64,000 bases of DNA from Ignisphaera aggregans DSM 17230 (GCA_000145985.1 CP002098.1:803853-867852), one strand, 5' to 3'. Counted from the first letter of the stretch, positions 46,887 through 63,316 are shown. Numbers and translations are program-made. Notes: generated by a model from the sequence alone, not told the origin.

Positions 46887-48347
46887 ATGTCTATAAAGCT
46901 TGGGAAAGACTTTAGATTTGGATTCTCTATAGTTGGTGTTCAGCATGAGATGGGTTTACCTGGATCAGAATTTGTTAGCGACTGGGTTTTGTGGCTCCAT
47001 GACCAGGAAAACATTGTCTCTGGACTTGTGAGTGGTGATTTTCCTGAGAATGGACCTGGCTATTGGCATCTATATAGACAGGATCATGATATTGCTGAGA
47101 GGCTTGGTATGGATGCTATGTGGATAACTATTGAATGGGCAAGGATATTCCCTAGACCGACAACAGATGTTGTTGTACCTATTGATAGGGATTCCGAGGG
47201 TATTAAGGGTGTATATATAGATGTTGAACATATAGAGAAGCTTAGGAGCTATGCAGATAGAGATGCATTGAGACGCTATAGGGAGATTATAGAGGATTGG
47301 AAGAGCCGTGGAGGTATGGTTATAGTAAATCTCTTCCACTGGTCTCTACCCATATGGCTCCACGACCCTATAAAGGTTAGGAAGCTTGGTGTTGATAGAG
47401 CACCTGCGGGTTGGGTTGATGAGAAGACTGTTGTTGAATATACAAAGTTTGTTGCTTTTATTGCTCATGAGCTTGGGGATGTTGTTGATATGTGGTATAC
47501 AATGAATGAACCAAATGTTATTGCCTCTCTTGGATATATACAGATACAGTCTGGTTTCCCACCCGGCTATCTAGATATTGACTGCTATAAGAGGGTTGTT
47601 AAACATCTTGCTGAAGCCCATGCAAGAGGCTATGAAGCAGTAAAGCTATTTTCGAAGAAGCCTATAGGAATTGTAGAGTCTATAGCTAGCTGGATACCTC
47701 TGAGAGAAGGTGATAGAGAGGCTGCAGAGAAGGGATTTAGATATAATCTGTGGCCAATAGAAGTAGCTGTAAATGGCTATCTAGATGATGTATATAGAGA
47801 TGATCTAAAGGGTCATCTAGATTGGATAGGGCTCAACTACTATACTAGAAATGTTGTTGTCTCTGACCCTAGATCTCTACAGGGCTTTAGGATTCTCCCA
47901 GGATACGGATATGGATGTACACCAAGGGGAATATCTATAGATGGTAGACCGTGTAGCGATTTTGGCTGGGAGATATATCCTGAGGGTATATACGATGTAC
48001 TCAAAAGGCTTTGGGATAGATATAGACTCCCAATATATGTTACAGAGAATGGCATTGCAGATGCTGTTGATGCACTAAGACCTCATTTCATAGTCTCACA
48101 TCTATACCAGATACATAGAGCTAGGAGCGAAGGTGTTGATGTTAGAGGCTACTTCCACTGGAATCTTATAGATAATCTTGAGTGGGCACAGGGATATAGA
48201 ATGAGGTTTGGTCTTGTCCACGTTGATTTTGAGACTAAGAAGAGGTATCTAAGGCCAAGTGCATTGCTGTTTAGAGAGATTGCAAGTGGTAAGGAGATAC
48301 CGGATGAGTTTATGCATATGGTTTATCCACCTAGGTACAGGGTATAG
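46887..48347 (+). CDS. Glycoside hydrolase family 1 beta-glycosidase (LacS-like)
   Basis: GH1 acid/base motif YTMNEPN and nucleophile motif YVTENGIAD. 486 aa. Confidence 0.85.
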   Translation: MSIKLGKDFRFGFSIVGVQHEMGLPGSEFVSDWVLWLHDQENIVSGLVSGDFPENGPGYWHLYRQDHDIAERLGMDAMWITIEWARIFPRPTTDVVVPIDRDSEGIKGVYIDVEHIEKLRSYADRDALRRYREIIEDWKSRGGMVIVNLFHWSLPIWLHDPIKVRKLGVDRAPAGWVDEKTVVEYTKFVAFIAHELGDVVDMWYTMNEPNVIASLGYIQIQSGFPPGYLDIDCYKRVVKHLAEAHARGYEAVKLFSKKPIGIVESIASWIPLREGDREAAEKGFRYNLWPIEVAVNGYLDDVYRDDLKGHLDWIGLNYYTRNVVVSDPRSLQGFRILPGYGYGCTPRGISIDGRPCSDFGWEIYPEGIYDVLKRLWDRYRLPIYVTENGIADAVDALRPHFIVSHLYQIHRARSEGVDVRGYFHWNLIDNLEWAQGYRMRFGLVHVDFETKKRYLRPSALLFREIASGKEIPDEFMHMVYPPRYRV

Positions 48348-48350
48348 AAT

Positions 48351-51125
48351 GTGTCTCATCTATATAGAGAGACAGTTGTTTTTATCACAACAATAATATT
48401 TGTCTTACAGATATCGCCACTATCTATATCTATAGCAGAGCGGTTTTCTCCAGATCTAGCTGTAAAGATGTTTATAGAGAGCCATAGCATCCCCGACTTT
48501 GTTAAGCATTCTATAGACCCTATGCTCCCAGATGTTTTTAGAGATGGTGTTCTGCTTTCCTATATAATTGCATCTGAAGGTATTGTTCTTCTAAAGAACA
48601 ATGGTGTTCTACCTCTCAACCATCATGAGAAGATAGCTGTATTTGGTGTTGCTCAGCACTGGGCTTGGTATTACCATGGCGGTGGATCTGGATATGTAGC
48701 TGTATCCCCTGATAGAGTTGTTACACTTCTAGAGGGTTTGAGGAACGCTGGTTTTATTGTTGATGAGGAGCTTGTTGATTTCTATAGGAGGTGGGTTGAG
48801 AGATATGGATATAGATATAGGGTTCATTGGTGGAATATAACTATTGCTGATGAGCCTAGTTTTAGTGATGATGAGGTGAAGCACTATGCTGAGAGAAACG
48901 GTGCTGCTATAGTTGTCATATCTAGATGGTCTATGGAGGGAGGAGATATTCCTTCGACAGAGAAAGGGGTTATCTCTACATGGGGAGGTATATCAATTGT
49001 TGCCCCGGGCTATAGATTAACACCACAGGAGTTAAACCTCATAAAACTTGTTTCGAGATACTTCAACAAAACCATTGTTATCCTAAACACCCCGGGTCCT
49101 ATAGATATGTCTTGGGATAGTCCAGATATAGATGCTATTCTATGGGTTGGATACCCAGGTGAACAGGGTGGAAACGCTGTTGCTGCTATCCTCCTAGGAC
49201 TTGTCTCTCCATCTGGTAAACTACCAGATACATGGGCATACAGGTTAGAGGACTATCCATCCACAAAGTACTTCGGTGTTGATGAATCTGTATATTGGGA
49301 GGATATATATGTTGGCTATAGATACTTCGATACATTTGGTATAGATGTTGCATATCCATTTGGATACGGTCTCTCATACACAAGGTTTAGGATAGATGTT
49401 GAAAATATTGGTATTGAGAATGGATACTATGTAAAGATTAGGGTGAGGGTTACCAACACAGGTTGTTACCCGGGTAAAGAGGTTGTGCAAATATATGTGA
49501 GTAAACCTGATAGTATTCTTGAGAAGCCTTATCAAGAGCTTATAGCTTTTGCTAAGACAGATCTTCTTCAACCTGGTCAGAGCCAGTATATAGATATAAC
49601 ATTTGATGTTAGGTCTATGGCTTCATACTCAGAGGAGCTCTCTGCATGGGTTCTAGAGCCAGGGGAGTATATTATCAGAGTTGGAAACTCGTCTAGAGAT
49701 ACACATATAGCTGCTATACTCATTCTCAACAAAATGGTTATAGTTGAAGACACTGAGAATAGACTACATGCACCTCATATCAATAGGCTTAGCAAGTGGG
49801 CTCTAAATGCAAAGCCCATACCTTATCAGGGGGAGTTAGATGAGTATAGATCTGCCCCTAGAATCTATATAGATCCAAGCTCTATACCTACAACGAATAG
49901 AACTGGATGGCCTGAAAAACCAAAGCCCCTCAACGTGAGTATTCCTCCCGATGCTGTGATAAAGCTTAGAGATGTCTTTGAGGGTAGATACACATTAGAA
50001 CAATTTGTAGCTCAGATGAGTTCTAGAGAACTTGTTGATCTGCTCATTGGTTTAAGGGGTGTGGATAGATATGGTATTCCAGAGCTTAGACATGTAGATG
50101 GACCTAACGGTGTTAGACAAGGGCCTTCACCAAACCCTGGAGGAACAGCATTCCCTGTTGCAACGATTATCGCTGCTACATGGGATATAGAGCTCGCTAA
50201 GGTCTATGGGTATCAGATAGGTCGTGAGCTTCTATATCTAGGGATATCGCTATGGCTTGCACCTGGTCTCAATATACATAGGAATCCTCTTGGTGGTAGA
50301 AACTTTGAGTATTTCTCTGAGGATCCTCTGCTTAGTGGTGTTATTGGTGCATCTATTGTTAAAGGTGTTCAGAGTGTTAATGGTGTTGGAGCTGTTCCAA
50401 AGCATTTTGTTGGAAATGAACAGGAGTTTAATAGATATAGCTCAAATTCAATTGTATCTGAAAGAGCATTGAGAGAGATATATCTAAAGCCATTTGAGAT
50501 TGTTGTAAAGACATCTGATCCATGGGCTATAATGACCTCGTATAACAAGGTAAACAATGTCTATACAGGAAATGACTGGAGTCTCATCGAAGGTGTTTTA
50601 AGGTTTGAGTGGGGATTCAGCGGATTTGTTATGACTGATTGGTACTCTGCTAGCTACAACTATAGAGCATTTATAGCTGGAAACGATGTTTTAATGCCAT
50701 ATGATGCAGATCTCTATAGAGCTGTACAGACACAGGTGGCTAACGCTCTGAACAGTGGTGAGATGGGTATAGAATATCTACAGAGATGTGCATACAACCT
50801 ACTAAGAGTTGTTATGAGGACTAGAATATTTGCTGAATCTATAGGGATGAAGCAAGAGGATGTATATCTATATACACCACCCCCAGATCTATTCAAGATA
50901 GAGAAACACTATACAGGGTATAGAGAGATATATACAGCTAGCACCATCTATACAACAACCATAGAGAAATCCACTACCACAACAATCACACCAACGACAA
51001 CACAGACAATTACAACAGTAACAACAACAATGAAGAGAATAGATATTGAGGCACTGTTTATCGCTACATCTGTTTTTCTAATCGGTATAGCGATAGGATA
51101 TATCGTGGCTAGGAGAAGGACATGA
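48351..51125 (+). CDS. Glycoside hydrolase family 3 beta-glucosidase/xylosidase-like enzyme with C-terminal Thr-rich stalk and TM anchor
   Basis: GH3 nucleophile motif GFVMTDW. C-terminal TTTIEKSTTTTITPTTTQT linker followed by a TM helix and RRRT. Confidence 0.7.
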   Translation: MSHLYRETVVFITTIIFVLQISPLSISIAERFSPDLAVKMFIESHSIPDFVKHSIDPMLPDVFRDGVLLSYIIASEGIVLLKNNGVLPLNHHEKIAVFGVAQHWAWYYHGGGSGYVAVSPDRVVTLLEGLRNAGFIVDEELVDFYRRWVERYGYRYRVHWWNITIADEPSFSDDEVKHYAERNGAAIVVISRWSMEGGDIPSTEKGVISTWGGISIVAPGYRLTPQELNLIKLVSRYFNKTIVILNTPGPIDMSWDSPDIDAILWVGYPGEQGGNAVAAILLGLVSPSGKLPDTWAYRLEDYPSTKYFGVDESVYWEDIYVGYRYFDTFGIDVAYPFGYGLSYTRFRIDVENIGIENGYYVKIRVRVTNTGCYPGKEVVQIYVSKPDSILEKPYQELIAFAKTDLLQPGQSQYIDITFDVRSMASYSEELSAWVLEPGEYIIRVGNSSRDTHIAAILILNKMVIVEDTENRLHAPHINRLSKWALNAKPIPYQGELDEYRSAPRIYIDPSSIPTTNRTGWPEKPKPLNVSIPPDAVIKLRDVFEGRYTLEQFVAQMSSRELVDLLIGLRGVDRYGIPELRHVDGPNGVRQGPSPNPGGTAFPVATIIAATWDIELAKVYGYQIGRELLYLGISLWLAPGLNIHRNPLGGRNFEYFSEDPLLSGVIGASIVKGVQSVNGVGAVPKHFVGNEQEFNRYSSNSIVSERALREIYLKPFEIVVKTSDPWAIMTSYNKVNNVYTGNDWSLIEGVLRFEWGFSGFVMTDWYSASYNYRAFIAGNDVLMPYDADLYRAVQTQVANALNSGEMGIEYLQRCAYNLLRVVMRTRIFAESIGMKQEDVYLYTPPPDLFKIEKHYTGYREIYTASTIYTTTIEKSTTTTITPTTTQTITTVTTTMKRIDIEALFIATSVFLIGIAIGYIVARRRT

Positions 51126-52515: not shown

Positions 52516-52617
52516 AACAACACAAAACATCTCCATTAGATCTAACCACCATCTAACCACATTCACAACCCAAAAAATAAACAACCATAGGACAAAACTC
52601 CCTAAACCCCAACACAT

Positions 52618-54231
52618 CTTTCTACCTCTTTGGGAGTTTCTATTTCTCTGTAAACACAAACATTACATCTTTTGTTTCGTGGTACAACCTTTCTACTCCC
52701 TTTTGGGAGTTTCTTAACAAGCAGCTATGGATCAGCTGTCATAGTCGGCGTCGCGGACGTCTTTCTACTCCCTTTTGAGAGTTTCTTAACTGTATCAAAT
52801 CCGCAGTTCTGGTTCAGAGCAACGGACAAATACTTTCTACTCCCTTTTGGGAGTTTCTGTTGTAACACTTTATTTATAGACTCGAGATCTAGTCTATACG
52901 CAATCGAGTCTTTCTACTCCCTTTTGGGAGTTTCGTTCTACATAGATAGTAGCGGGAATACGGTTTACGTAACTGCGTATCTTTCTACTCCCTTTTGGGA
53001 GTTTCAGATATATGGACAGGTGCTACAGGCTATAGCATCCATCAGAGCTTTCTACTCCCTTTTTGGAGTTTCAGGATATAGCCTATAGCAAATATAAACA
53101 CTCCAAAGAGACACAGAAACCTTTCTACTCCCTTTTGGGAGTTTCCAGATATGTGTCAGGCTTCCCCGTGCAATAAGGAAATATTTGGAGCAGACTTTCT
53201 ACTCCCTTTTGGGAGTTTCCTACTGCTTTGGGTACATATGTCTCTGGCTCTAGCCCTAGGAAGTTGTAGTATGCCTTTCTACTCCCTTTTGGGAGTTTCA
53301 TTTTTTGAGGTGGGAAGATGGGAAGAGACTATGTATACCTTGGAAAAACTTTCTACTCCCTTTTGGGAGTTTCTCTCCTCATGCCGAGCTTTACAAGTAA
53401 TGAGTATGTAACTATGTCTAGCTTTCTACTCCCTTTTGGGAGTTTCACGTATGATTCCTCGATCTTATCCTTCTGGCAGAGTAGCGTTCCATCTTTCTAC
53501 TCCCTTTTGGGAGTTTCGTGGTAGAGTTATCGAGGTGGGTAGGCCAGATGTTGACGTTCACGAAGACTTTCTACTCCCTTTTGGGAGTTTCTCATTTACA
53601 AATCCGTATTGGTCGTTAGGAGAGCTCTCAAAGATATCTTTCTACTCCCTTTTGGGAGTTTCATCAAGCAACAATAAGAGCTTGATCATCATAGCTATTG
53701 TACTTAGACCTCTTTCTACTCCCTTTTGGGAGTTTCAATTGCCTTTGCAGGTTATTTCCTTGGGGCTTACAGAGACTACCTTTCTACTCCCTTTTGGGAG
53801 TTTCTTGGCTTGTGATCTGCGGACTTTGCGATTAACTATCTTGATTAAACTTTCTACTCCCTTTTGGGAGTTTCTGCTGGACATGGATAACCTCAATGGG
53901 CTGTCTTCCGATCATGACCTTTCTACTCCCTTTTGGGAGTTTCAGGGATACTAACATCTCTATTGCCATTGATATTAACAATAGTTGTCATCATGACTTT
54001 CTACTCCCTTTTGGGAGTTTCTATATAAGACGTATTCGCAGATAATAGATCTATTCGCTGTAAGCCTTTCTACTCCCTTTTGGGAGTTTCAATAGACATT
54101 CGTCAATAGCTGTGCCCTGATTGTTGCAACAACAATCTTTCTACTCCCTTTTGGGAGTTTCAGGCGTGCTATCATGATTGGCTCTGTCGCTGCGATCCTG
54201 ACTGTGCTTTCTACTCCCTTTTGGGAGTTTC
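52618..54231 (-). CRISPR. CRISPR array: 23 copies of a 25-nt repeat, 22 spacers of 42-55 nt. Transcription is inferred on the minus strand, with the leader at the high-coordinate end
   Basis: Repeat CTTTCTACTCCCTTTTGGGAGTTTC. Repeat start positions are 52618 (degenerate, 23 nt), 52689, 52761 (GGGA to GAGA variant), 52833, 52910, 52981, 53048 (TTTTTGGAG variant), 53121, 53195, 53275, 53349, 53422, 53493, 53567, 53638, 53712, 53780, 53850, 53919, 53997, 54066, 54137, 54207. On the minus strand the repeat ends ...GUAGAAAG, like the archaeal 8-nt crRNA 5' handle. The degenerate repeat lies at the low-coordinate (trailer) end. Confidence 0.95.
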
Positions 54232-54428
54232 CGAGTATTATGTTTATATATCTGTTTATAAGTCTATATGATTTCATTACCAATGGATATTATTGGAACA
54301 TTCGTAGAGTCATTGATTAGCAACGACAATAGTGTTCTAATGAAAAAGAATAGAAATAATGAAACAGTACTAATTGTGAAGACACAATAACCATGCCATA
54401 GGTGTTCTAATAGGAAAAGAGTTGATTG
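54232..54428 (-). promoter_or_regulatory. CRISPR leader (AT-rich, about 200 nt) between the last perfect repeat and the csa3 stop
   Basis: AT-rich non-coding sequence next to the conserved end of the array, opposite the degenerate repeat. Confidence 0.5.
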
Positions 54429-55136
54429 CTAGAGCAACATTTTTGCTAGGTCTGTAGGTATATATTCATAGCTCTTTCCTTTCTTTTCATATTCTAGAAG
54501 TTCTTTCTTTACTAGTTTTACCAGTTTTCTTTGGAGTGTTTGTCTTGGTATGCCGAGTTTCTTTACTAGGTGTTTTGTTCTTTTTGTTCCTGTTGCTATC
54601 TCTTTCAATATCTGTAGCTCTGTATAGTCTATCTCTGCTAGTTTAAGTAGTATTGGTATTCTTATTACTCTTGATTCTTGTGTTGGGAATATCTGTCTTA
54701 TTATATCCCTCGTCTTTGTATCTTCCTCTAGCTCAAGCTCAAGTGTCTCTACAGAGACATTTGTGATATGTGAAAGTGTATGTGTTGCAAATGCTGCATA
54801 GGCAACAGCCATCGAAAGCCATCTAAAACCTCCAACAGCTAGGAAATAGGCTTTGCAGGGAGCAAATCTTTCAACATTTCTTCTAATCAGAGCAACATTC
54901 TCCTCAAAACCATTTCTAGGATCAAGCCAAAACATCTCAACAACAACCTCTCTATACACCTCTCTAAGCCATAGATCAAGTCTATTCATAGCATCCTCAG
55001 CATCAGACACCCTAGGAATAGAATTAAACAATAAAACAACATCGCCCTCACCAATACCAGTTCTACCAATAGCCCTAGCAACCCTCTCCCACGAAATACC
55101 AACACTTACAACAACAACCTTCCTCAAGCGACTCAC
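54429..55136 (-). CDS. csa3: Csa3-type CRISPR-associated transcriptional regulator (CARF-like N-domain plus C-terminal wHTH)
   Basis: 235 aa. N-terminal Rossmann-like segment (KVVVVSVGISWERV...). C-terminal HTH (TELQILKEIATGTKRTKHLVKKLGIPRQTLQRKL). Directly abuts the leader. Confidence 0.55.
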   Translation of the reverse strand: MSRLRKVVVVSVGISWERVARAIGRTGIGEGDVVLLFNSIPRVSDAEDAMNRLDLWLREVYREVVVEMFWLDPRNGFEENVALIRRNVERFAPCKAYFLAVGGFRWLSMAVAYAAFATHTLSHITNVSVETLELELEEDTKTRDIIRQIFPTQESRVIRIPILLKLAEIDYTELQILKEIATGTKRTKHLVKKLGIPRQTLQRKLVKLVKKELLEYEKKGKSYEYIPTDLAKMLL

Positions 55137-55174
55137 CTTAGCTGTAGCTATATGCTATATAGCTATAACTCACT

Positions 55175-55190
55175 GACAAAGTTTATAAGC
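55175..55190 (+). promoter_or_regulatory. BRE/TATA-like element (AAAGTTTATAAG) for the cas interference operon
   Basis: TTTATAA at 55182-55188 lies about 25-30 nt upstream of the first TTG/GTG start (55211/55229), consistent with a leaderless archaeal transcript. Confidence 0.35.
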
Positions 55191-55210
55191 TCAGTAGAAC
55201 GTATCTTCAG

Positions 55211-55618
55211 TTGCAGAGGTTTGAAACCGTGTCTCAAGAGAAACCCTCTATAGAGGAATCGATAGACATCGTTGGCGAATACCTAGCCGCCTTCCTGGCA
55301 GTTGAGCAGGACTGGGGCGCTATTGACGGACTTATGCATGCTCATAGACCTGAAGAAGCCTTGATGTACTACGACATGGCGCTTAGGCATGTCCACAAAG
55401 TTATGGAGGAGCTCGAAGAGCTGGGTCTGAAACTGTGGTTCCTCCACGGATTCGATCAGCACAGCAAAAACGTTAGAGACCTGCTATGCGATGAAGGCAA
55501 GGTGAAGAGTGTAGCGCTTAAACTTGTTGAGAGGGCTCTGTCAAAATATCCCAAATACTATGCCAAGCTGAAGAAGGAGACTGAGAAAGAAGAAGAGAAG
55601 GAAGAGGTAGAGGGATGA
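55211..55618 (+). CDS. csa5: Small alpha-helical subunit of type I-A Cascade (Csa5/Cas11-like candidate)
   Basis: 135 aa with a Glu/Lys-rich tail. Position immediately upstream of cas7 matches the I-A order. Start is TTG (55211) or GTG (55229). Assigned from context, not motif. Confidence 0.4.
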   Translation: MQRFETVSQEKPSIEESIDIVGEYLAAFLAVEQDWGAIDGLMHAHRPEEALMYYDMALRHVHKVMEELEELGLKLWFLHGFDQHSKNVRDLLCDEGKVKSVALKLVERALSKYPKYYAKLKKETEKEEEKEEVEG

Positions 55619-55622
55619 AACC

Positions 55623-56675
55623 TTGACGACTCCAAACCTCAAGCTCTACGTTCTAGCCCGCGTAGAGCTACAGCTGAGCTCGCTTAACGCCAGTGGTGCC
55701 ATAGGCAACTATACAAAGCTTCAGGAGGGATATGTGATAGTAAATACCAGCAGAGGTCCACTCCACGTACCAGTCCCAGTCATAACGGGCAACGCACTAA
55801 AGAACTGGCATGCAAGAGCAATGGCTGAAACGTATGTTAGCCTAGGAGGTAAAAAGATTCACGAATCGCACTTCGCAGACATGTACAGGCTCTCCCTCAA
55901 AAGACTTGGGAGCGAAGGAGAGCAAAAGAGCAAACTGTCTGAGGCTGGGCTCGTTAATGAATGCAGCATATGTGATGTTCACGGGTATCTCATAGCCGAA
56001 GCGGGTGTTCAACTAAAGAGGGAATCACTCATAAAGTTCAGTTTTGCTGTTCCAGTCGAAGAGGAGGTCAAACAGGTCACCGAGCAATATCTTCAGCTAA
56101 AGTTTGCGATAACACATAACAGAGTTACTGCTGATCCAAAGGAAATGATGCTCTTTAAGCGAGAATACGGAAGCACAGTGTTCGGATGGGAGACAATCTT
56201 AGACGTGGCATCTATAGGCAGATCGCAGTTCGAACGCAACAGTAGCTCCAATTCATGGCTCGGAAAACCGCTACTTACCAAAGACGGTAATAAAATTGCA
56301 TTCGACGAAATTACATTGCGCGCCAAAGCCGCAATACTAGCGTTTGTAGCACTACTAAGCGGACATCTTGGTGCCAACACATCTAGAGCCCTACCCCTGT
56401 CCAAGGTCGTTGATCTGGTTGTAATACGTTCCAACGGCTCTATACCTGTTCCGTTGCATCCGTTCTACGAGGACTACGCAAAGGATCTGCTGAGCCTCGT
56501 CAAATCGCCACTCGGTAACAGAATACAGAAGGTGTACTGCTTGAAGTATGGGAAGGCGTATGCGGAGCTACAGAATGAGAGGTCGAAGCTCGTAGAGTTC
56601 GATACATACTACGGGCTACTAGACGCCGTTGCCAAGGATGTTGAGGAAGCGCTGAAGCCGAGCCAGGCTAGCTAA
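55623..56675 (+). CDS. cas7: Cas7 (Csa2) backbone subunit of type I-A Cascade
   Basis: 350 aa. Region PVITGNALKNWHARA resembles the Csa2 G-rich loop. Conserved position between csa5 and cas5. Confidence 0.7.
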   Translation: MTTPNLKLYVLARVELQLSSLNASGAIGNYTKLQEGYVIVNTSRGPLHVPVPVITGNALKNWHARAMAETYVSLGGKKIHESHFADMYRLSLKRLGSEGEQKSKLSEAGLVNECSICDVHGYLIAEAGVQLKRESLIKFSFAVPVEEEVKQVTEQYLQLKFAITHNRVTADPKEMMLFKREYGSTVFGWETILDVASIGRSQFERNSSSNSWLGKPLLTKDGNKIAFDEITLRAKAAILAFVALLSGHLGANTSRALPLSKVVDLVVIRSNGSIPVPLHPFYEDYAKDLLSLVKSPLGNRIQKVYCLKYGKAYAELQNERSKLVEFDTYYGLLDAVAKDVEEALKPSQAS

Positions 56676-56684
56676 ATCGAATGG

Positions 56685-57503
56685 ATGAGCGGGGCTGAGC
56701 AGCGCATGAAGGTGCTCCTGTTCGAAGTCAAATCCCTTTTTTACTCCTACAAGGCACCCATCGCCTACCAGGTCAAGGCCTCCAACATGCTTCCCCCACC
56801 GTCTGCGCTCCTGGGGGCTGTGTACAGGAACTACGTAAGGGAAACCTCAAGCTCATACAGCAAGGATTCCCTGTCTGAATTCTTGAGGTCTGTGGCGTAT
56901 GCAGGCTTTGCGGTCCTCCCCGTGGATGACAGAGGCTTCGTATCGTTCAGGAAGTTCGTGGTTCTGCTGAAGCATTGGAGACTCGAAAAGGACGAAGAAG
57001 AACCCCGCCCCGATGCTATGCTCCGCGAGTACGTCTATATGCACGGCAGGCTCGTGGGTGTGATTGCCTATAACGGGTTAAACAACGAAACCTTAACGAA
57101 GGTTGTTGAAACTATTGAGTACTTGGGGAACAGCGAATCGCTGATTGGCATCAGGGCACTGGAATCGGGGCTCTCAGTAAAGAGCGCCGAAGAGTGCGGA
57201 GATGGGTACATGACGCAGATGATCTCTAGCTCTGTAAATAATCTGCCCCGCCACGGAGTTATAGAGCAGTGCGGAAGGGTTCCCAGATCACCCTGGGGTG
57301 GGCGTGAAACCGCTGATGTATGCTATGTGTGGAACCCCCTCGAGCCCGCCGGTAAAGACCTCTACAGACCCATACGGTTCGGTGACATACGAACCGAGCT
57401 ACTAGAGGATCTACGCAAGAAGGTTGCCTGCGTCGAGAGCGTAGCACTGAACGCCAGACTCGTGTTCACCTCCGCGGGCTTTGAATGCCTCAAGAGGGGG
57501 TAG
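56685..57503 (+). CDS. cas5: Cas5 (Cas5a)
   Basis: 272 aa. N-terminal KAPIAYQVKASNMLPPPSALLGAVYRN matches the Cas5 RAMP N-terminal pattern (PPPS..LxG). Confidence 0.65.
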   Translation: MSGAEQRMKVLLFEVKSLFYSYKAPIAYQVKASNMLPPPSALLGAVYRNYVRETSSSYSKDSLSEFLRSVAYAGFAVLPVDDRGFVSFRKFVVLLKHWRLEKDEEEPRPDAMLREYVYMHGRLVGVIAYNGLNNETLTKVVETIEYLGNSESLIGIRALESGLSVKSAEECGDGYMTQMISSSVNNLPRHGVIEQCGRVPRSPWGGRETADVCYVWNPLEPAGKDLYRPIRFGDIRTELLEDLRKKVACVESVALNARLVFTSAGFECLKRG

Positions 57504-59535
57504 GCTCGCGATGGATTCAATGCTCGATACAACGGTTGAGGCATTTAAGGTGATGATCTCAAGACGTGCAGGCTTAGACAAGGAAGCCGTTACGCCCTAC
57601 AGATACCAGCTGGAAGCCTTCAGAGAGTTCGAGAGGCTGGCTAGCGGTGACTTGGACGTGCTGATTGTACGGGCTCCACCAGCGAGGGGCAAAACAGAGG
57701 CACCCATCGCTTCCTTCTTGGCTCAGTTCGTTTCGGGCGAAATCCTCCTCCCAAGGATCATCTACGCCACCCCTACACAGACGCTACTGTATAGCATGGT
57801 TAGAAGGTTCGAGGGCTATCTCGAGGCTCTCTCCTCAGCATACGAGAGCTTCAAGTCATGGAGGGAGAAGCTGAACCCCGTGGCCGAGCACGGGCTGGAC
57901 GTGGATCCACAGTATCTGATTCCTAGGTTCACGGTGTCCACATATGACGTTGTAGCGTATGCGTGGACCGCCAGGAGGGCGATTCCGTGGAGGCCCTTCA
58001 CGACCCGCGGAGCCCTGATCTCAAGCCTCGTGGTGTTCGACGAGGCGCACTTAGTGCAGGATTCGTACACGTACTCTCAGAGGGTGTTCGTTAAGCTCGT
58101 CGAAACCATGGCTAGATCCGGGACCCCGATCGTGATCATGTCCGCGACTCTGCCCAACAAGTTCGTCGAGGATCTGAGCAAGGGTCTCGACGGAGACCTC
58201 GTGAGAGAGGTTGTTGATAGTGGCGCGTCGATTCCCGGCAAAATATCCGTATCCGTCGTTGATGACAGCGCCCCCACCACAGATTTCGAGCGGGCTATGG
58301 CCGAAATCCTCAATGTTGCGAATGATGCTGCGAGAAGTGGTAAGGACGTGCTGCTGGTCTTCAACACGGTCAGAGCTGCCGTTAAGGTCTACAACGTGTT
58401 AGCTACGAAGTTGGAGAAGGAGGCATTCACCGTAGTTGAGGTGAAGGATAAGGACGATGTCGAGAGGGCTCTGAAGGACGATGGGAAGGGCAGGATCGCC
58501 CTTCTGGTGCTCGTTCACGGCAGGCTTCCCATGGGCGTGCGCAGGAGGCGCGAAGAGCTGTTCGAAAGTTTGAGGAGAATACGCAGTGGAATGACTGAGG
58601 AAGGTTTGGAGAAGAGGTGGAGCCTCATAGTTGTGGCGACACAGGTGGCTGAGGTGGGTCTCGACTACAGCTTCGACTATGTGGTCGCTGAGCTTGCGCC
58701 GCCGTCAGCGCTAGTGCAACGGATTATGCGGGCTGGTAGAATCAGGGGGCAACACTCCGAAGCCTTAGTTCTGCCGCCCATCGCATTCGAATGCGACATC
58801 GATTCGGAGTGTACACCCCCCTCTTTCTTCGTGTACGCGAAAAGTACTCTAGACCTTGGAAGGGAGTTCGTGGGGGAGATCAGCAAAGACCCCGCTAGGG
58901 TTGCGGACGTAATCTACGTCGCCGACTGGGTGGACAGGGAGTTCAAGGCTATCGAGTCAGAGACCAAGGAATGGGCAGAAATACTTGTGAACCGAGCGCA
59001 CCAGATCCTCGACACAAGCAGGTTCGTTCCGCCGTTCGCAACAGTAGTTCATCGGAGAATCCTTGAGAGCTTCAAGTTCAGGCTCGGAGAGTACGTAGCT
59101 CTGCGCATACTCGGCGAAGAGACCTCGGAACTTGAGAAGGTCGCTGACATCGGGGAATTCGAGAGAAGGCTCGGCGAGCTGATTGCCAAGCCCGGTGAGG
59201 GGCTGCGCGAACTCATCGAGGGGAGCGTTAGATACGCGCTCCACTTCAGAAAGAGGGAGATCGGCGGTGACAAGTATACTGTTGCCATGCTGCCAAGGGA
59301 ATGCGTGTGGACCGTGGGCGACGAGCATGTTGTGACGTATGTGCGCTCGGTGCGTGGAGGGAAGGTCGAAATCGGCTTCCTGGTGCTGAAGAAGCTGGAC
59401 GAGAGCGGCAGAGTCTACGCCGCACCAGGCGTGGAGGACATCTGCGGCAGATTACTGATCTGCAAGCGCGTTCCCGGATTCGAGCCGGAGATTGGTCTTG
59501 TAGAGGTGGAAGAGGTTGAACTCGTCGTTCGGTGA
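57481..59535 (+). CDS. cas3': Cas3' superfamily-2 helicase
   Basis: Motif I PARGKTEA, motif II VVFDEAHL, and later helicase motifs (VATQVAEVGLD). 684 aa. Confidence 0.75.
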   Translation: MNASRGGRLAMDSMLDTTVEAFKVMISRRAGLDKEAVTPYRYQLEAFREFERLASGDLDVLIVRAPPARGKTEAPIASFLAQFVSGEILLPRIIYATPTQTLLYSMVRRFEGYLEALSSAYESFKSWREKLNPVAEHGLDVDPQYLIPRFTVSTYDVVAYAWTARRAIPWRPFTTRGALISSLVVFDEAHLVQDSYTYSQRVFVKLVETMARSGTPIVIMSATLPNKFVEDLSKGLDGDLVREVVDSGASIPGKISVSVVDDSAPTTDFERAMAEILNVANDAARSGKDVLLVFNTVRAAVKVYNVLATKLEKEAFTVVEVKDKDDVERALKDDGKGRIALLVLVHGRLPMGVRRRREELFESLRRIRSGMTEEGLEKRWSLIVVATQVAEVGLDYSFDYVVAELAPPSALVQRIMRAGRIRGQHSEALVLPPIAFECDIDSECTPPSFFVYAKSTLDLGREFVGEISKDPARVADVIYVADWVDREFKAIESETKEWAEILVNRAHQILDTSRFVPPFATVVHRRILESFKFRLGEYVALRILGEETSELEKVADIGEFERRLGELIAKPGEGLRELIEGSVRYALHFRKREIGGDKYTVAMLPRECVWTVGDEHVVTYVRSVRGGKVEIGFLVLKKLDESGRVYAAPGVEDICGRLLICKRVPGFEPEIGLVEVEEVELVVR

Positions 59536-60439
59536 CCTTGTGAAGCGGCTCGAAGCCTTAACCGGGGGCAGAGTCGAGGAATACCTCTCCTACAGACCTA
59601 AGGAGAGCGAGGGACGGGAGACGCTGATGAGTCACATCATGCTGACCGTCCGCTACGCCTCGGCGCTGAGCGATCACATAGTCACGCTCGCAAGGATAGT
59701 ACGCAAGATCGACATTGCTCTGAGCCCCGAAAACGCTAGGAGGGTCGTGCGGTACCTGGTTCTGTTCACAGCATTCTACCACGACATAGGGAAGGCTGAG
59801 GCGCATTATCAGCTCTACGCTCACGGAGCGGTGGACAGAGTGGGGGTGCCCCACAACTACGCCTCGGTGGCTTTCGTGGTCGAGAACGACGACATCTTCG
59901 AGGGCTTCGTTGAGGCGCTGACTGGGAACTACGGCGTTAGTGTCAGGGCGGCGGAGGTCATGTTCGACTCGTCCCTGACCGCGATAGCCCTACACCACGA
60001 GTACTACGACTACAAGGATCTGTCCTTCGTCGAGGTTCTGACGCCTCTGACGATAGCCCTAGCCAAGAATGTCGATTCGCTGACTGAGCTTGCGTTCCAC
60101 GAATCCGTTTTCGACCTCTTGCGGAGTCTCGCAGAAGAGGTCGGACGAAACCTCAACGTACGAATCCCTGTTCCAGCTACTCGCAGGAACTTTTCGACGA
60201 CGCTCGGTCGAGCGATAGAGTACGTTGCCACGCTGCACTACGAGTTCGGAGCACTGAACGTCAGACGGGAGGGTGGATCCATTAGAGTAAGCATGGACGA
60301 AGCCATCGCCTCGGTCCTCGAGCTGGCTGAGGCGCTGACGTGGGTTCTAGTGCTCGCAGACAACCTCGCCGCGCGCCACAGGGGTTCGACAGGCGAGGAA
60401 TCCTTTTTCGCGTCCCTGATCGGCAGGTACTACGGGTGA
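59516..60439 (+). CDS. cas3'': Cas3'' HD-domain nuclease
   Basis: HD motif FYHDIGKAEAHYQ plus downstream His-rich LHHEYYD. 307 aa. Split-cas3 arrangement typical of type I-A. Confidence 0.7.
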   Translation: MNSSFGDLVKRLEALTGGRVEEYLSYRPKESEGRETLMSHIMLTVRYASALSDHIVTLARIVRKIDIALSPENARRVVRYLVLFTAFYHDIGKAEAHYQLYAHGAVDRVGVPHNYASVAFVVENDDIFEGFVEALTGNYGVSVRAAEVMFDSSLTAIALHHEYYDYKDLSFVEVLTPLTIALAKNVDSLTELAFHESVFDLLRSLAEEVGRNLNVRIPVPATRRNFSTTLGRAIEYVATLHYEFGALNVRREGGSIRVSMDEAIASVLELAEALTWVLVLADNLAARHRGSTGEESFFASLIGRYYG

Positions 60440-60449
60440 GGGGATTGGT

Positions 60450-61658
60450 ATGGGAGGTCTCAAATTAATTCCCATATACACGCACTATGTCACACCGACA
60501 TACAGTAAATATAATTTGCTGGGAATGCTGCACGTAGCAAGTAGGTTCCGGACAGCCATCATCCGCCGTGTTCGGGTGCACGGCTACACCTACACTGTCG
60601 AGCTACTGACCGACAAGAGCGAGCGAGAGCTGGCGCAGGATTTGGCGGAGACCGTACAAAGGGAGCGCAGAGAAATAGTGAGGGCTGAGGGCAAGCGCTA
60701 CAGAGCTATGGATGGGTTTGGCTTCGTCTGCCAATCATCGGGTACCGACCCTTACTTCAATGCTCCGGCTGTCTGCAGGTATATTGAATACCTCACAGGC
60801 AAGGAGACCTCGCTGTCGACTGTAAGCAAGTCCGGGAAGGGTCGAAAATCCACTCAGGCATCAGAAAGCGAAGTCTTCAGCTCGATATTCGCAGAGAGGA
60901 TACATGACAAGCGCAGTAGCACCGGAAAATCACCCTCCCTCATCCTCGCTCCGGAGCTCGGGAAATACGCAACATCGGGAATCCCATACGAGGGCGGTCT
61001 CTACCCCGACGTTGGAGATTCCGGCGGCGCTTCCGCATGCCTGCTTTTCGCTCTGATCGGGTGGGCTTGCTGTAGCTTCAAGTGGGAGATCGCTGAAGAG
61101 AGGAGGAGCCACCACGTCTTCGCATATGTGGCTCCGAAAGACTATCTAGGCCATGCCGAGGCCAAGGCTCTGTACTGGATCGGGAGGAGGCTTGCGTACG
61201 TTACGTCGCTCTTCGTGAGCTACGCAGGTCGGGAGGCCAGCGAAGTGAAGGAGAAGCTCTCAACTCTAGGTATCTTGGCTATGCTTTCACCTGTTATCAG
61301 AGATGTTGCGGAGAGCGCTGATATCCTCTCGAAGCTCGAACTGAACATATACACGCACTCATTTGAGGGCGGTAGGCATAGCATCAGGATCGCTGGAGCC
61401 TTTGGTCTCGATAGGGTTGATGTGAGGTTGCTTCCATCTAGACTCGTAGGGGCTATGCTCGCATATGTCAATCACCTACCAAAGCTGGTCTTCGAGGTTC
61501 CATCGTTTCTGAATACGCTGGGTGAGTACTTGGTTTCTGGCAACGACGTTCTATATATTGAGGCTCTCAGAGAGTTAGCATCAGTTCTAAGCGATAGAGA
61601 GACGTCTGAGGATACTAAATGGATGGCAAGAGTACTCCTGCAGAATGCTGGAAGGTGA
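60450..61658 (+). CDS. cas8a: Candidate large subunit Cas8a (Cas8a2/Csa4-like)
   Basis: 402 aa. The position after cas3'' in the I-A gene order is the main evidence. No diagnostic motif recognised. Confidence 0.4.
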   Translation: MGGLKLIPIYTHYVTPTYSKYNLLGMLHVASRFRTAIIRRVRVHGYTYTVELLTDKSERELAQDLAETVQRERREIVRAEGKRYRAMDGFGFVCQSSGTDPYFNAPAVCRYIEYLTGKETSLSTVSKSGKGRKSTQASESEVFSSIFAERIHDKRSSTGKSPSLILAPELGKYATSGIPYEGGLYPDVGDSGGASACLLFALIGWACCSFKWEIAEERRSHHVFAYVAPKDYLGHAEAKALYWIGRRLAYVTSLFVSYAGREASEVKEKLSTLGILAMLSPVIRDVAESADILSKLELNIYTHSFEGGRHSIRIAGAFGLDRVDVRLLPSRLVGAMLAYVNHLPKLVFEVPSFLNTLGEYLVSGNDVLYIEALRELASVLSDRETSEDTKWMARVLLQNAGR

Positions 61659-61664
61659 GAATTC

Positions 61665-62447
61665 ATGCTATACACAGCTAGAGTTTACTTCACACCGATG
61701 AAACTAATTCCGTTAGCTGTCTGGAGTGGGATGTACCTATACAGAGAGTTACTTAACCTCTTTGAAGCTTATGGAGCTAGATTTGAACATAGGAATAGAA
61801 AACCGTTTTATTTATCGCCTATATTTAGTGATGATGGAAAATTTATTACCTCTGGCATGCTAGAGCCTGATAAAATCTATATGTTTAGGTTTTCAACTAT
61901 AGATTCAATGCTTATAGATATATTTAGAACAGCGTTAGGCAATAATATGAACAATAATCCTATATTTCGAATCGTAAGAATTGAAGAATCCGTATTTAAC
62001 TCTCCTATCTTGGGACAGAGAGATGTTGATGGGAAATATATGGCTAGAATAGAACTTAAATTCGCTCCAACAGTCTTTAAATATAGGGGCTTGGAAATTC
62101 TATACCCCTCTCCTACAAGATTTTTTCTCTCCATTGCAAGAGATTTATACGATATATTCAATGTGAATCTTCGTAAAGATACTATTAATATTATTATGAA
62201 CACGGAAATTGCATCTCAAAAAATTAATATTGTTAAGATATACATTGGCAAATCATCAAATAATGCTGAGAGACATATAAAAACATTTTCGGGTAAAGCC
62301 ACATACGTTGTTTTATTACATGGGGAAAGAGTACCTATATTAAATATTTTTCTAAGACTTGCCGAAATGGTGGGTGTAGGTAAGAACAGATCCATAGGAC
62401 TTGGTCATGTAGATATTCTGAGTATTGATGTGAAGAAACTGAAATGA
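61665..62447 (+). CDS. cas6: Cas6 crRNA endoribonuclease
   Basis: 260 aa with the C-terminal Gly-rich loop GVGKNRSIGLGHV characteristic of Cas6. Composition is AT-rich, unlike the upstream cassette. Confidence 0.7.
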   Translation: MLYTARVYFTPMKLIPLAVWSGMYLYRELLNLFEAYGARFEHRNRKPFYLSPIFSDDGKFITSGMLEPDKIYMFRFSTIDSMLIDIFRTALGNNMNNNPIFRIVRIEESVFNSPILGQRDVDGKYMARIELKFAPTVFKYRGLEILYPSPTRFFLSIARDLYDIFNVNLRKDTINIIMNTEIASQKINIVKIYIGKSSNNAERHIKTFSGKATYVVLLHGERVPILNIFLRLAEMVGVGKNRSIGLGHVDILSIDVKKLK

Positions 62448-62472: not shown

Positions 62473-63057
62473 TTATACACATATCTTTCTATAGAAGCAG
62501 TGGTTGCATCTTGTTTTCATAGGTGTTTTTGGTGGTGGTTTTTGTTGCTGTATATATTTCTTAAACTCCTCTACAATGTTTATAGTTGTCCGTCTTAGGT
62601 TTGGAGATATGTTTATCTCTATAATCTCTCCCCCTATCTGTGTCACTATAAATGTTCTGTCTATTGGTTTGTGAAATGTTTCTTCTGTTGCTATTGTATA
62701 TGCTGTTAGCTGTATTAGGTGGTGATACGATTTTCTCCATAGCCTTGCTCTAGATGTCTCCAGTTTTATCTCTGCTATACTCACCCTCTTCCCATTATCT
62801 ATAACAATATCTATCTTTCCATATATCCCTAGAGATCTTGATTTTACTGGATACTCCATGTATATATCTCCATCTATTCCATAGCCTCTAACAATCTTCA
62901 GGATATCTATCTTTGAATATCTTGCAAATTTCATTGACTCTGTTGGTGGTTCCCAATACATAAAGTATTTGTAGAATGCTATTCTTGGGCAGTAGACATA
63001 CTCTTTTATCAATACTATGGGTATCTCGATACTAGATAACTCCATAGCTCTGCTCAT
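62473..63057 (-). CDS. cas4: Cas4 (RecB-like nuclease with Fe-S cluster)
   Basis: N-terminal CPR Cys, C-terminal CNHCFYRKIC Cys cluster, RecB-like DxK-type core. 194 aa. In operon with cas2/cas1. Confidence 0.7.
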   Translation of the reverse strand: MSRAMELSSIEIPIVLIKEYVYCPRIAFYKYFMYWEPPTESMKFARYSKIDILKIVRGYGIDGDIYMEYPVKSRSLGIYGKIDIVIDNGKRVSIAEIKLETSRARLWRKSYHHLIQLTAYTIATEETFHKPIDRTFIVTQIGGEIIEINISPNLRRTTINIVEEFKKYIQQQKPPPKTPMKTRCNHCFYRKICV

Positions 63058-63316
63058 TTATCTCAACCCTATTTACACCAATTGTAATTGTCTTCTCAAG
63101 AACTTCCCTCGGTATAACCATGACTAGGACACTATCTGTAGATCTATCTATATATCTCTGTAGAGCTCTTGCAACATCTTTTGCCTTTGAAGATCCTCCT
63201 CTAGCTATATAGAGACTCCTCTGAATTCTTGTAAAGCCCATAGACTTCAGCTTTTCGCATACCTCAAGCCTCTTTCTATCATCTGATATATCATATGCAA
63301 CAACTATGTATGGCAC
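63032..63316 (-). CDS. cas2: Cas2
   Basis: 94 aa. N-terminal YIVVAYDISDDRKRLEV...MGFTRIQRSLY matches the Cas2 fold pattern. Overlaps cas1 and cas4. Confidence 0.7.
   Translation of the reverse strand: MPYIVVAYDISDDRKRLEVCEKLKSMGFTRIQRSLYIARGGSSKAKDVARALQRYIDRSTDSVLVMVIPREVLEKTITIGVNRVEINEQSYGVI

Follow-up and report, generated by a model that had tools for sequence, protein, structure and literature searches.

That cas genes are exchanged as modules and transferred horizontally is well documented, and nothing in the locus described here alters how CRISPR evolution is currently understood. Modular exchange of archaeal adaptation and interference cas cassettes was reportedly described by Garrett et al. 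in 2011, and Lawrence and Ochman are said to have set out how horizontal transfer, followed by amelioration, leaves compositionally atypical genomic islands. The type I-A locus considered here belongs to Ignisphaera aggregans DSM 17230 and lies in a stretch of 64,000 nucleotides (CP002098.1:803853-867852), hereafter the window, in which positions are counted from the first letter. Its six interference genes, csa5-cas7-cas5-cas3'-cas3''-cas8a, are rich in guanine and cytosine (GC) within AT-rich surroundings, and a segment of about 6.2 kb, from the start of csa5 to about codon 319 of cas8a, has probably been overwritten, very recently, by a homologous, allelic cassette of higher GC. The genome sequence is finished and consists of one chromosome of 1,875,953 bp with 35.7% GC (PMC3035270), and the Cas3' protein of the window is 100% identical to the annotated protein of the strain.

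The modular exchange of archaeal adaptation and interference cassettes has been discussed by Vestergaard, Garrett and Shah (2014; PMC3973734), whose examples include Methanocaldococcus adaptation modules that are 93% identical and linked to different interference modules; Ignisphaera has no occurrence in that paper. The present locus resembles such exchanges in that conserved adaptation and Cas6 genes stand, in separate operons, with an interference cassette of other history. Both the nearest relatives and the degree of divergence differ among the genes of the one locus, as in module exchange. It differs from the described cases in that the apparent swap is between allelic variants of one I-A subfamily, not between subtypes; in that it appears to have been caught before amelioration, with a gap of about 0.4 in GC at third codon positions (GC3); and in that one crossover falls inside cas8a, giving a chimeric large subunit, with evidence for two successive imports.

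In its parts, the locus is close to the type I-A systems of Sulfolobales, Thermoproteus and Pyrococcus, with which it shares the gene order, the split Cas3, a Csa2-family Cas7, a Cas5a, a divergent csa3, and, where Csa5 would be expected, a small alpha-helical protein whose profile weakly matches Cas11a of P. furiosus. It departs from those systems in that no curated family is matched by its candidates for Csa5 and Cas8a, and in that its Cas7 falls under the I-A-specific cut-off. Compositionally atypical islands offer a further likeness, in the sharp break in GC, GC3 and codon usage within the window and in the AT-ward substitution of an older copy of the cassette on the metagenome contig L008. 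However, the segment is not accompanied by an integrase, a tRNA target, an insertion sequence or the flanking direct repeats associated with islands, and it takes the place of homologous genes, position for position, with no new genes inserted.

Composition and boundaries of the GC-rich segment

In 1-kb steps, GC content is 0.32-0.42 from 1 to 55 kb, 0.47-0.58 from 55 to 61 kb, and 0.34 from 62 to 63 kb. The 42 other open reading frames (ORFs) of the window, taken as background, have a GC of 0.371±0.023 and a GC3 of 0.265±0.039 (range 0.20-0.34). Against this set, the six cassette genes (Table 1) deviate in GC3 by z = +6.5 to +12, and in an index resembling the codon adaptation index (CAI), trained on the rest of the window, by z = -5.6 to -10.8. 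Arginine is encoded by CGN in 33% of cases in the cassette, vs 5% in the host. The encoded proteins are affected as well: isoleucine makes up 4.6% of residues, vs 11.4% in the host, and such a shift in amino-acid usage implies long evolution in a GC-rich genome. In composition, then, the segment has the character of horizontally acquired DNA, and its flanks lie within about two standard deviations of the background except for the GC3 of cas1, which is slightly high (z +2.3), and the CAI of cas6. The codon index of cas6 is unusually low (z -3.1) despite a host-like GC3, and the first 20 or so codons of that gene are elevated in GC (GC3 0.40-0.47); together with the GC3 of cas1, the cas6 index may preserve traces of older exchanges.

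These measurements bear closely on the original prediction, made by eye from the sequence, that six genes of about 55% GC sit within AT-rich csa3, leader, cas6 and adaptation genes. Neither GC nor codon usage is uniform, and the six genes lie far outside the host distribution; csa3, cas6, cas4 and cas2 fall inside the host range of GC3, cas1 is only marginally high, and the leader is AT-rich (Table 1). The abundance of antisense ORFs was also correctly noted, six of at least 80 amino acids being found within the cassette. The description of the cassette proteins as rich in alanine and arginine holds for alanine (8.8% vs 6.6% in the host) and fails for arginine, which shows no enrichment (7.3% vs 6.9%).

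The left change point in GC falls at 55227 (support 54991-55290), at or near the 74-bp csa3/csa5 intergenic region where it had been placed by eye. The right boundary had been expected as an abrupt shift at the cas8a stop codon, and there the prediction has to be revised, because GC falls stepwise: a three-state fit gives 0.55 to about 61260, 0.47 over 61260-61750, and 0.32 thereafter. A maximum-chi-square scan of a 6.5-kb DNA alignment of the window and L008 recovers one breakpoint, at 61407 (support 61395-61425), with a mismatch of 0.227 to its left vs 0.080 to its right (chi-square 133, vs a maximum of 17.7 in 500 permutations). This position lies inside cas8a, about 84 codons ahead of the stop, and Cas8a is therefore chimeric. 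Along cas8a, GC3 is flat in L008 (0.51, 0.53, 0.45, 0.47, 0.43), whereas in the window it drops right after the breakpoint (Table 1). The exchanged unit is thus bounded on the left by the start of the operon and on the right by a point within its last gene; it is not the whole operon, and a right end inside cas8a makes the event a partial-cassette replacement, though still of the same kind of process.

None of the marks of an integrative element, such as an integrase or transposase, a tRNA or att site, or flanking repeats, accompanies the segment. A search for flanking repeats recovered no direct or inverted repeats bracketing the GC-rich DNA, and no tRNA or Rfam element lies near it, the sole tRNA of the window being at 24.1 kb. 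The left junction lies at or near a conserved sequence. The divergent control region at 55137-55210, which was compared with L012:297-400, carries a TATA-like AAAGTTTATAAG and a palindromic TAGCTGTAGCTATATGCTATATAGCTATA. Over 55100-55260, a stretch that also takes in the gene starts, mean column identity to L012 is 85%, with a nearly invariant core, vs 78-81% in the flanking coding DNA. The TATA-like box and palindrome may represent a promoter and Csa3 operator shared across hosts of very different GC.

Separate histories of the effector and flanking genes

The cassette belongs to a small clade, comprising I. aggregans and a few contigs from hot-spring metagenomes. The nearest relatives of its Cas3' come from one Joint Genome Institute (JGI) metagenome and are 70-71% (three proteins), 63% and about 49% identical; the Cas3' proteins of metagenome-assembled genomes (MAGs) assigned to Ignisphaera sp. 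are only about 40% identical. Contigs L008, L011 and L012 derive from JGI sample 3300020567 (Ga0213465). Gene order within the cassette is the same across contigs L003-L005 and L008-L012, which are of very different GC: 0.565 in L011, 0.558 in L012, 0.53 in L010 (GC-rich throughout), 0.47 in L008 (cas7'-cas5-cas3'-cas3''-cas8a-cas6-cas4'), 0.40 in L009, 0.39 in L003 and L004, and 0.36 in L005. Since AT-rich versions exist, the cassette is not intrinsically GC-rich. The cassettes of L011 and L012 are 70-85% identical to that of the window and share its internal GC3 profile, in which cas7 and cas8a lie below cas5, cas3' and cas3''; the gradient within the window cassette is therefore inherited, and does not reflect partial amelioration.

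Comparison with L008 divides the locus in two. Cas6 is 92% identical between the window and L008, and a C-terminal fragment of Cas4 (46 amino acids) 85%, vs 71-77% for Cas7, Cas5, Cas3', Cas3'' and Cas8a, a disparity that parallels the 93% case in Methanocaldococcus. Synonymous divergence (dS) by the Nei-Gojobori (NG86) method is 0.23 for cas6, 0.16 for cas4 and 0.72-0.97 for the effector genes, although NG86 values become unreliable where GC3 differs strongly between the sequences compared. In L008, too, GC drops at cas6, from about 0.50 to 0.31-0.39, and in several related loci the GC of cas6 is below that of the effector genes.

The flanking genes have other relatives. Apart from the L008 protein, Cas6 has no match above 48% identity in a collection of 5.8 billion proteins. 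The closest full-length Csa3 proteins (78%, 71% and 64% identical) are encoded on L025, L026 and L028 (GC 0.47-0.54); L026 also encodes Cas1, Cas2 and Cas4 proteins that are 75%, 67% and 64% identical to those of the window, and L025 holds the next-best Cas6 fragment (55%). These three loci carry a different I-A cassette, in which the genes are ordered otherwise and Cas7 and Cas3' share only about 25% identity with their counterparts in the window. The cassette thus has its nearest neighbors in L008, L011, L012 and L009, and csa3, cas1, cas2 and cas4 have theirs in L025 and L026. Such differing relatives make the flanking and effector genes incongruent, as would be expected if, as originally predicted, effector and adaptation genes did not come from one source.

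Some further features of these relatives deserve mention in their own right. The order on L025, L026 and L028 is csa5-cas7-cas5, a gene for a protein of 360-375 amino acids, cas3', and a gene for a protein of 250-280 amino acids; the last is followed directly by cas6 on L025 and L026, and on L028 a gene for an AAA-ATPase (PF13476/PF13304-like, 396 amino acids) lies between the cassette and cas6. Two tandem csa3-type genes are present on L025-L027. On L001 (Ga0185307_1003618), a more distant relative, the pattern recurs in weaker form: effector genes with a GC of 0.46-0.50 encode proteins 39-46% identical to the window's, cas6 has a GC of 0.37, and Cas4 and Cas2 are 65% identical to those of the window; a mismatch between effector and adaptation modules may be common in this group. 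The csa5 product is 75% identical to the copy on AT-rich L009, vs 50-63% for the other L009 cassette proteins. As the Csa5 proteins of L012 and L009 are themselves 70% identical, this probably reflects higher conservation of Csa5, and not a further mosaic junction.

Direction of the exchange and competing explanations

A neighbor-joining tree of concatenated Cas5 and Cas3' (860 ungapped columns) has the form ((L011,L012)100,(window,L008)90)100, with AT-rich L009 next out. Substitutions were polarized at codons where all four proteins agree, with the third base shared by L011 and L012 taken as ancestral. The L008 branch carries 91 changes from GC to AT and 5 from AT to GC, implying an equilibrium GC3 of 0.19; the window branch carries 35 and 12, implying 0.59, and the two spectra differ (Fisher p = 0.0015). 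For cas8a, polarized by L011 alone, the corresponding ratios are 25:7 on the L008 branch and 11:15 on that of the window. The equilibrium implied for L008 resembles that of an AT-rich host, and its cassette has thus been decaying towards AT for a long time; the window cassette, judged from the same sites, has undergone essentially no AT-ward decay, though its host has a GC3 of 0.265. The AT-ward drift of L008, and its absence from the window, indicate that an older resident cassette similar to that of L008 was replaced, very recently, by a homologous one.

We therefore favor, as the likely account, recent overwriting of the segment by an allelic cassette, because of four lines of evidence: compositional discordance, a roughly fourfold jump in dS, differing nearest neighbors, and the absence of AT-ward drift. 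The same lines support the earlier proposal of a recent effector-module replacement from a higher-GC source, with csa3, the array, cas6 and the adaptation genes kept. In outline, an older GC-rich cassette of the same subfamily would have resided beside cas6 in the ancestor that both loci share, ameliorating there; the replaced cassette would itself have been an earlier GC-rich import, like the present one in L008. In the I. aggregans lineage, the interval from about 55.2 kb to 61407 would then have been overwritten by a homologous cassette still evolving in GC-rich surroundings. Homologous recombination is the probable route, with one crossover within or beside the conserved control region between csa3 and csa5, which would offer a natural left crossover site, and a second inside cas8a, so that the last 84 or so codons of the old cas8a would survive in a chimeric gene. 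The DNA presumably came from a donor genome or element whose GC was far above that of the host (at least about 56%), judging from the composition of the segment and from its GC-rich metagenomic relatives, which are only 70-85% identical to it.

Several alternatives must be considered. A single old acquisition in the ancestor of I. aggregans and L008, with effectors evolving fast in an arms race and ameliorating since, would require no recent replacement. It would be in keeping with the sister grouping of the two cassettes, with the cas8a 3' end, cas6 junction and GC drop that both loci share, with the generally lower conservation of effector proteins relative to Cas6 or Cas1, and with the inflation of synonymous change by non-equilibrium composition. 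Yet amelioration would, by a rough estimate from mutation bias, add at most about 1.6- to 2-fold to dS, where the cassette exceeds cas6 and cas4 about fourfold; the step in divergence is sharp within one gene and does not proceed gene by gene; the two branches show opposite tendencies in hosts that are both AT-rich; and GC3 falls at the breakpoint in the window only. We consider this account unlikely. The step at 61407, for its part, shows that coalescence times differ across it and does not show which side moved, and one could suppose that the right-hand block (the cas8a 3' end, cas6, cas4, and perhaps cas2 and cas1) was exchanged between I. aggregans and L008 while the cassettes stayed as older residents. 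Exchange of adaptation modules has been documented (PMC3973734), and the isolation of Cas6 beyond its L008 counterpart would fit. However, a long resident of a host with such a low GC3 should drift AT-ward, as the L008 cassette does and the window cassette does not; the right-hand genes match the host in composition, the odd codon index of cas6 apart; and it is in the window, not in L008, that GC3 is discontinuous at the breakpoint. A move of the right-hand block is therefore quite improbable.

An intrinsic cause of the composition, by which a native cassette would be kept GC-rich through mRNA structure, expression at about 90 °C or biased gene conversion, might explain why the ranking of cassette genes by GC3 is kept in L011 and L012, and why cas6 falls below the effectors in GC in several related loci. 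It is largely refuted by the homologues on AT-rich contigs (L003, L004, L005 and L009), which are AT-rich themselves; the L008 copy is also losing GC, and amino-acid composition is shifted as well, so that we give this explanation very little credence. As for a chimeric assembly or contamination of the reference genome, the abrupt change in composition is all that could suggest it. Four Logan assemblies, each built from its own read set, show 100% identity to the window over the two junctions, which excludes an assembly chimera; on L008, an independent metagenome contig, cas8a, cas6 and cas4 are arranged alike and GC drops as well, and the finished state of the single chromosome (PMC3035270) speaks against it too. 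The chance of such an error is negligible.

Some observations nonetheless weigh against a recent replacement, in addition to the caution on NG86 dS given above. The grouping of the window cassette with that of L008 is weak (90% neighbor-joining bootstrap), and would also fit one shared acquisition. The polarization is a parsimony analysis of a few hundred sites. The best GC-rich relatives come from contigs only 5-6 kb long, with no genes other than cas genes. L008 lacks the left end of the locus, which places the left junction beyond the divergence test, and L012 includes a GC-rich csa3 fragment (98 amino acids) that is 82% identical to the window's, much as the cassette genes are, which leaves the left boundary with a weak phylogenetic signal. 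Finally, scans of genome and viral collections found no donor genome. Profile scans of genome contigs with Cas3' and Cas7 recovered no close relative, the best Cas7 being 30-34% identical (Bathyarchaeia, Geoglobus and other MAGs), but this is a weak negative, as the source genome itself was not retrieved by them. The Cas3' profile likewise found no relative among viral contigs, and hence no support for a viral carrier.

If the segment was indeed overwritten, as we think likely, the locus represents an unusually clean natural replacement of an effector module, in which a GC gap of about 20 points labels the new DNA, the earlier state is still to be seen in L008, and one crossover can be placed, with a precision of about 30 bp, inside cas8a. 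The locus would also put to a natural test the tolerance of a type I-A complex for sequence change. Cas5, Cas7, Csa5 and three-quarters of Cas8a, all imported, differ by about 25% from the set that they replaced, and would need to function together with the Cas6, repeat, Csa3 regulator and Cas8a C-terminus already in place. By analogy with studied type I-A systems, Csa3 and the conserved promoter would drive the operon; the host Cas6 would cut the array transcript into CRISPR RNAs (crRNAs) with an 8-nt handle derived from ...GUAGAAAG; the imported Csa5, Cas7 and Cas5, with the chimeric Cas8a, would assemble on the crRNA; and the Cas3' helicase and Cas3'' HD nuclease would degrade matching DNA. 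The original prediction held that a swapped cassette would face a non-cognate Cas6, repeat and handle. This is probably overstated, because the incoming cassette appears to be an allelic variant of a subfamily already paired, in L008, with a 92%-identical Cas6. All six cassette ORFs are intact, with operon-like overlaps, and dN/dS (the ratio of nonsynonymous to synonymous divergence) relative to related genes is about 0.15-0.2, as would be expected of a cassette that still functions.

The data suggest at least two successive imports at this locus. A wider conjecture, which we regard as tentative and rather doubtful, is that the locus acts as a landing pad, at which co-habiting hyperthermophiles of differing GC repeatedly overwrite each other's I-A effector genes by recombination. 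The sites proposed for such recombination are the conserved csa3/csa5 promoter on one side and the cas8a 3' end or cas6 on the other. If true, a landing pad of this kind would yield functional chimeric Cas8a proteins, and would provide an escape from viral inhibitors of Cascade or Cas3 that keeps spacer memory, Cas6 and the adaptation genes in place.

Gene identity, locus layout and neighboring features

Every ORF between 54.4 and 64 kb is a cas gene (Table 1). Curated NCBIfam or Pfam cut-offs are passed by csa3, cas5a, the cas3' helicase, cas4, cas2 and cas1. Cas7 passes at the level of the DevR family, and scores 196.1 against the I-A-specific model TIGR02583, under its cut-off of 212.6. Cas3 is split into two adjacent, overlapping ORFs; the GKT and DEAH motifs of Cas3' are invariant, and the HD motif is present in Cas3'', which scores 42.8 against TIGR01596 (cut-off 43.45). 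For Cas3', the first in-frame TTG, at 57481, was considered as a start and gave no exact match; the ATG at 57511 is the real start. Cas6 scores 51.5 against TIGR01877, under the cut-off of 58.65, and has a precomputed match to PF10040. In the public assembly, the gene calls for csa3 and csa5 begin at 55127 and 55229, respectively.

Table 1. Features of the type I-A locus in the window. GC3 is GC at third codon positions; scores are in bits and are given with the curated cut-off; aa, amino acids.
Feature	Coordinates	Strand	GC	GC3	Basis or remark
CRISPR array	52617..54231	-			23 repeats; host-like retained part of the locus
Leader	54232..54428	-	0.31-0.34		AT-rich; between array and csa3
csa3, CARF/HTH regulator	54429..55136	-		0.28	TIGR01884 96.7 vs 60.2
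Divergent csa3/csa5 control region	55137..55210				left junction of GC-rich segment
Putative csa5/cas11a small subunit	55211..55618	+	0.485	0.56	position upstream of cas7 and size; 135 aa
cas7 (Csa2/DevR family)	55623..56675	+	0.486	0.52	TIGR01875 123.5 vs 67.3
cas5a	56685..57503	+	0.547	0.67	TIGR01874 65.9 vs 23.05
cas3' helicase	57511..59535	+	0.564	0.69	TIGR01587 131.7 vs 102.45
cas3'' HD nuclease	59516..60439	+	0.583	0.74	Pfam PF18019 27.2 vs 23.1; cassette maximum of GC3
Putative cas8a, whole gene			0.530	0.60	402 aa
Putative cas8a, 5' three-quarters (codons 1-319)	60450..61406	+		0.58-0.72	probable end of incoming GC-rich segment
Putative cas8a, 3' end (codons 320-402)	61407..61658	+		0.47	about 91% DNA identity to L008
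cas6	61665..62447	+	0.33	0.27	92% identical to L008 Cas6
cas4	62473-63057	-		0.33	adaptation gene, host-like composition
cas2	63032-63316	-		0.30	adaptation gene, host-like composition
cas1	63316 onward, past window end (64000)	-		0.35	325 aa on public assembly

Two of the names are putative. The csa5 product has no family match in Pfam or NCBIfam; a profile of eight homologues from the Csa5 position gives a weak match to P. furiosus Cas11a (7r21, E=0.03), and the assignment follows from position and size. The cas8a product, similarly, has no match in sequence or profile searches of NCBIfam, Pfam and the PDB, and is named for its size and its place after cas3''. One of eight Cas8a homologues weakly matches PF09703 (Cas_Csa4, E=0.057), and a single-sequence AlphaFold model, with a mean predicted local distance difference test (pLDDT) score of 40.5, is unusable.

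The array repeat reads CTTTCTACTCCCTTTTGGGAGTTTC on the + strand and GAAACTCCCAAAAGGGAGTAGAAAG on the - strand, from which the array is inferred to be transcribed because of the 3' ...GAAAG handle and a degenerate distal repeat. The degenerate terminal repeat lies at 52617, the 23 repeats end in ...GTAGAAAG, a handle of the GAAAG type, and the leader adjoins the newest-looking end. A search beside the cassette relatives found no CRISPR array on any of the contigs L008-L012, and L005 has two isolated repeat-like sequences only.

Beyond the window, a - strand gene of at least 302 amino acids lies downstream of the full-length cas1 (L029:9926-10834, about 290-1200 bp past the window end), and the contigs of all four assemblies stop within it. 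The gene is possibly csa1, perhaps followed by an array that breaks the assemblies. On the other side of the locus, at 46887-51125, two large + strand ORFs (486 and 924 amino acids) have a slightly raised GC of 0.40-0.42; the 924-residue protein, viewed by eye, may be a family-3 glycoside hydrolase, with a threonine-rich linker and a C-terminal hydrophobic anchor.

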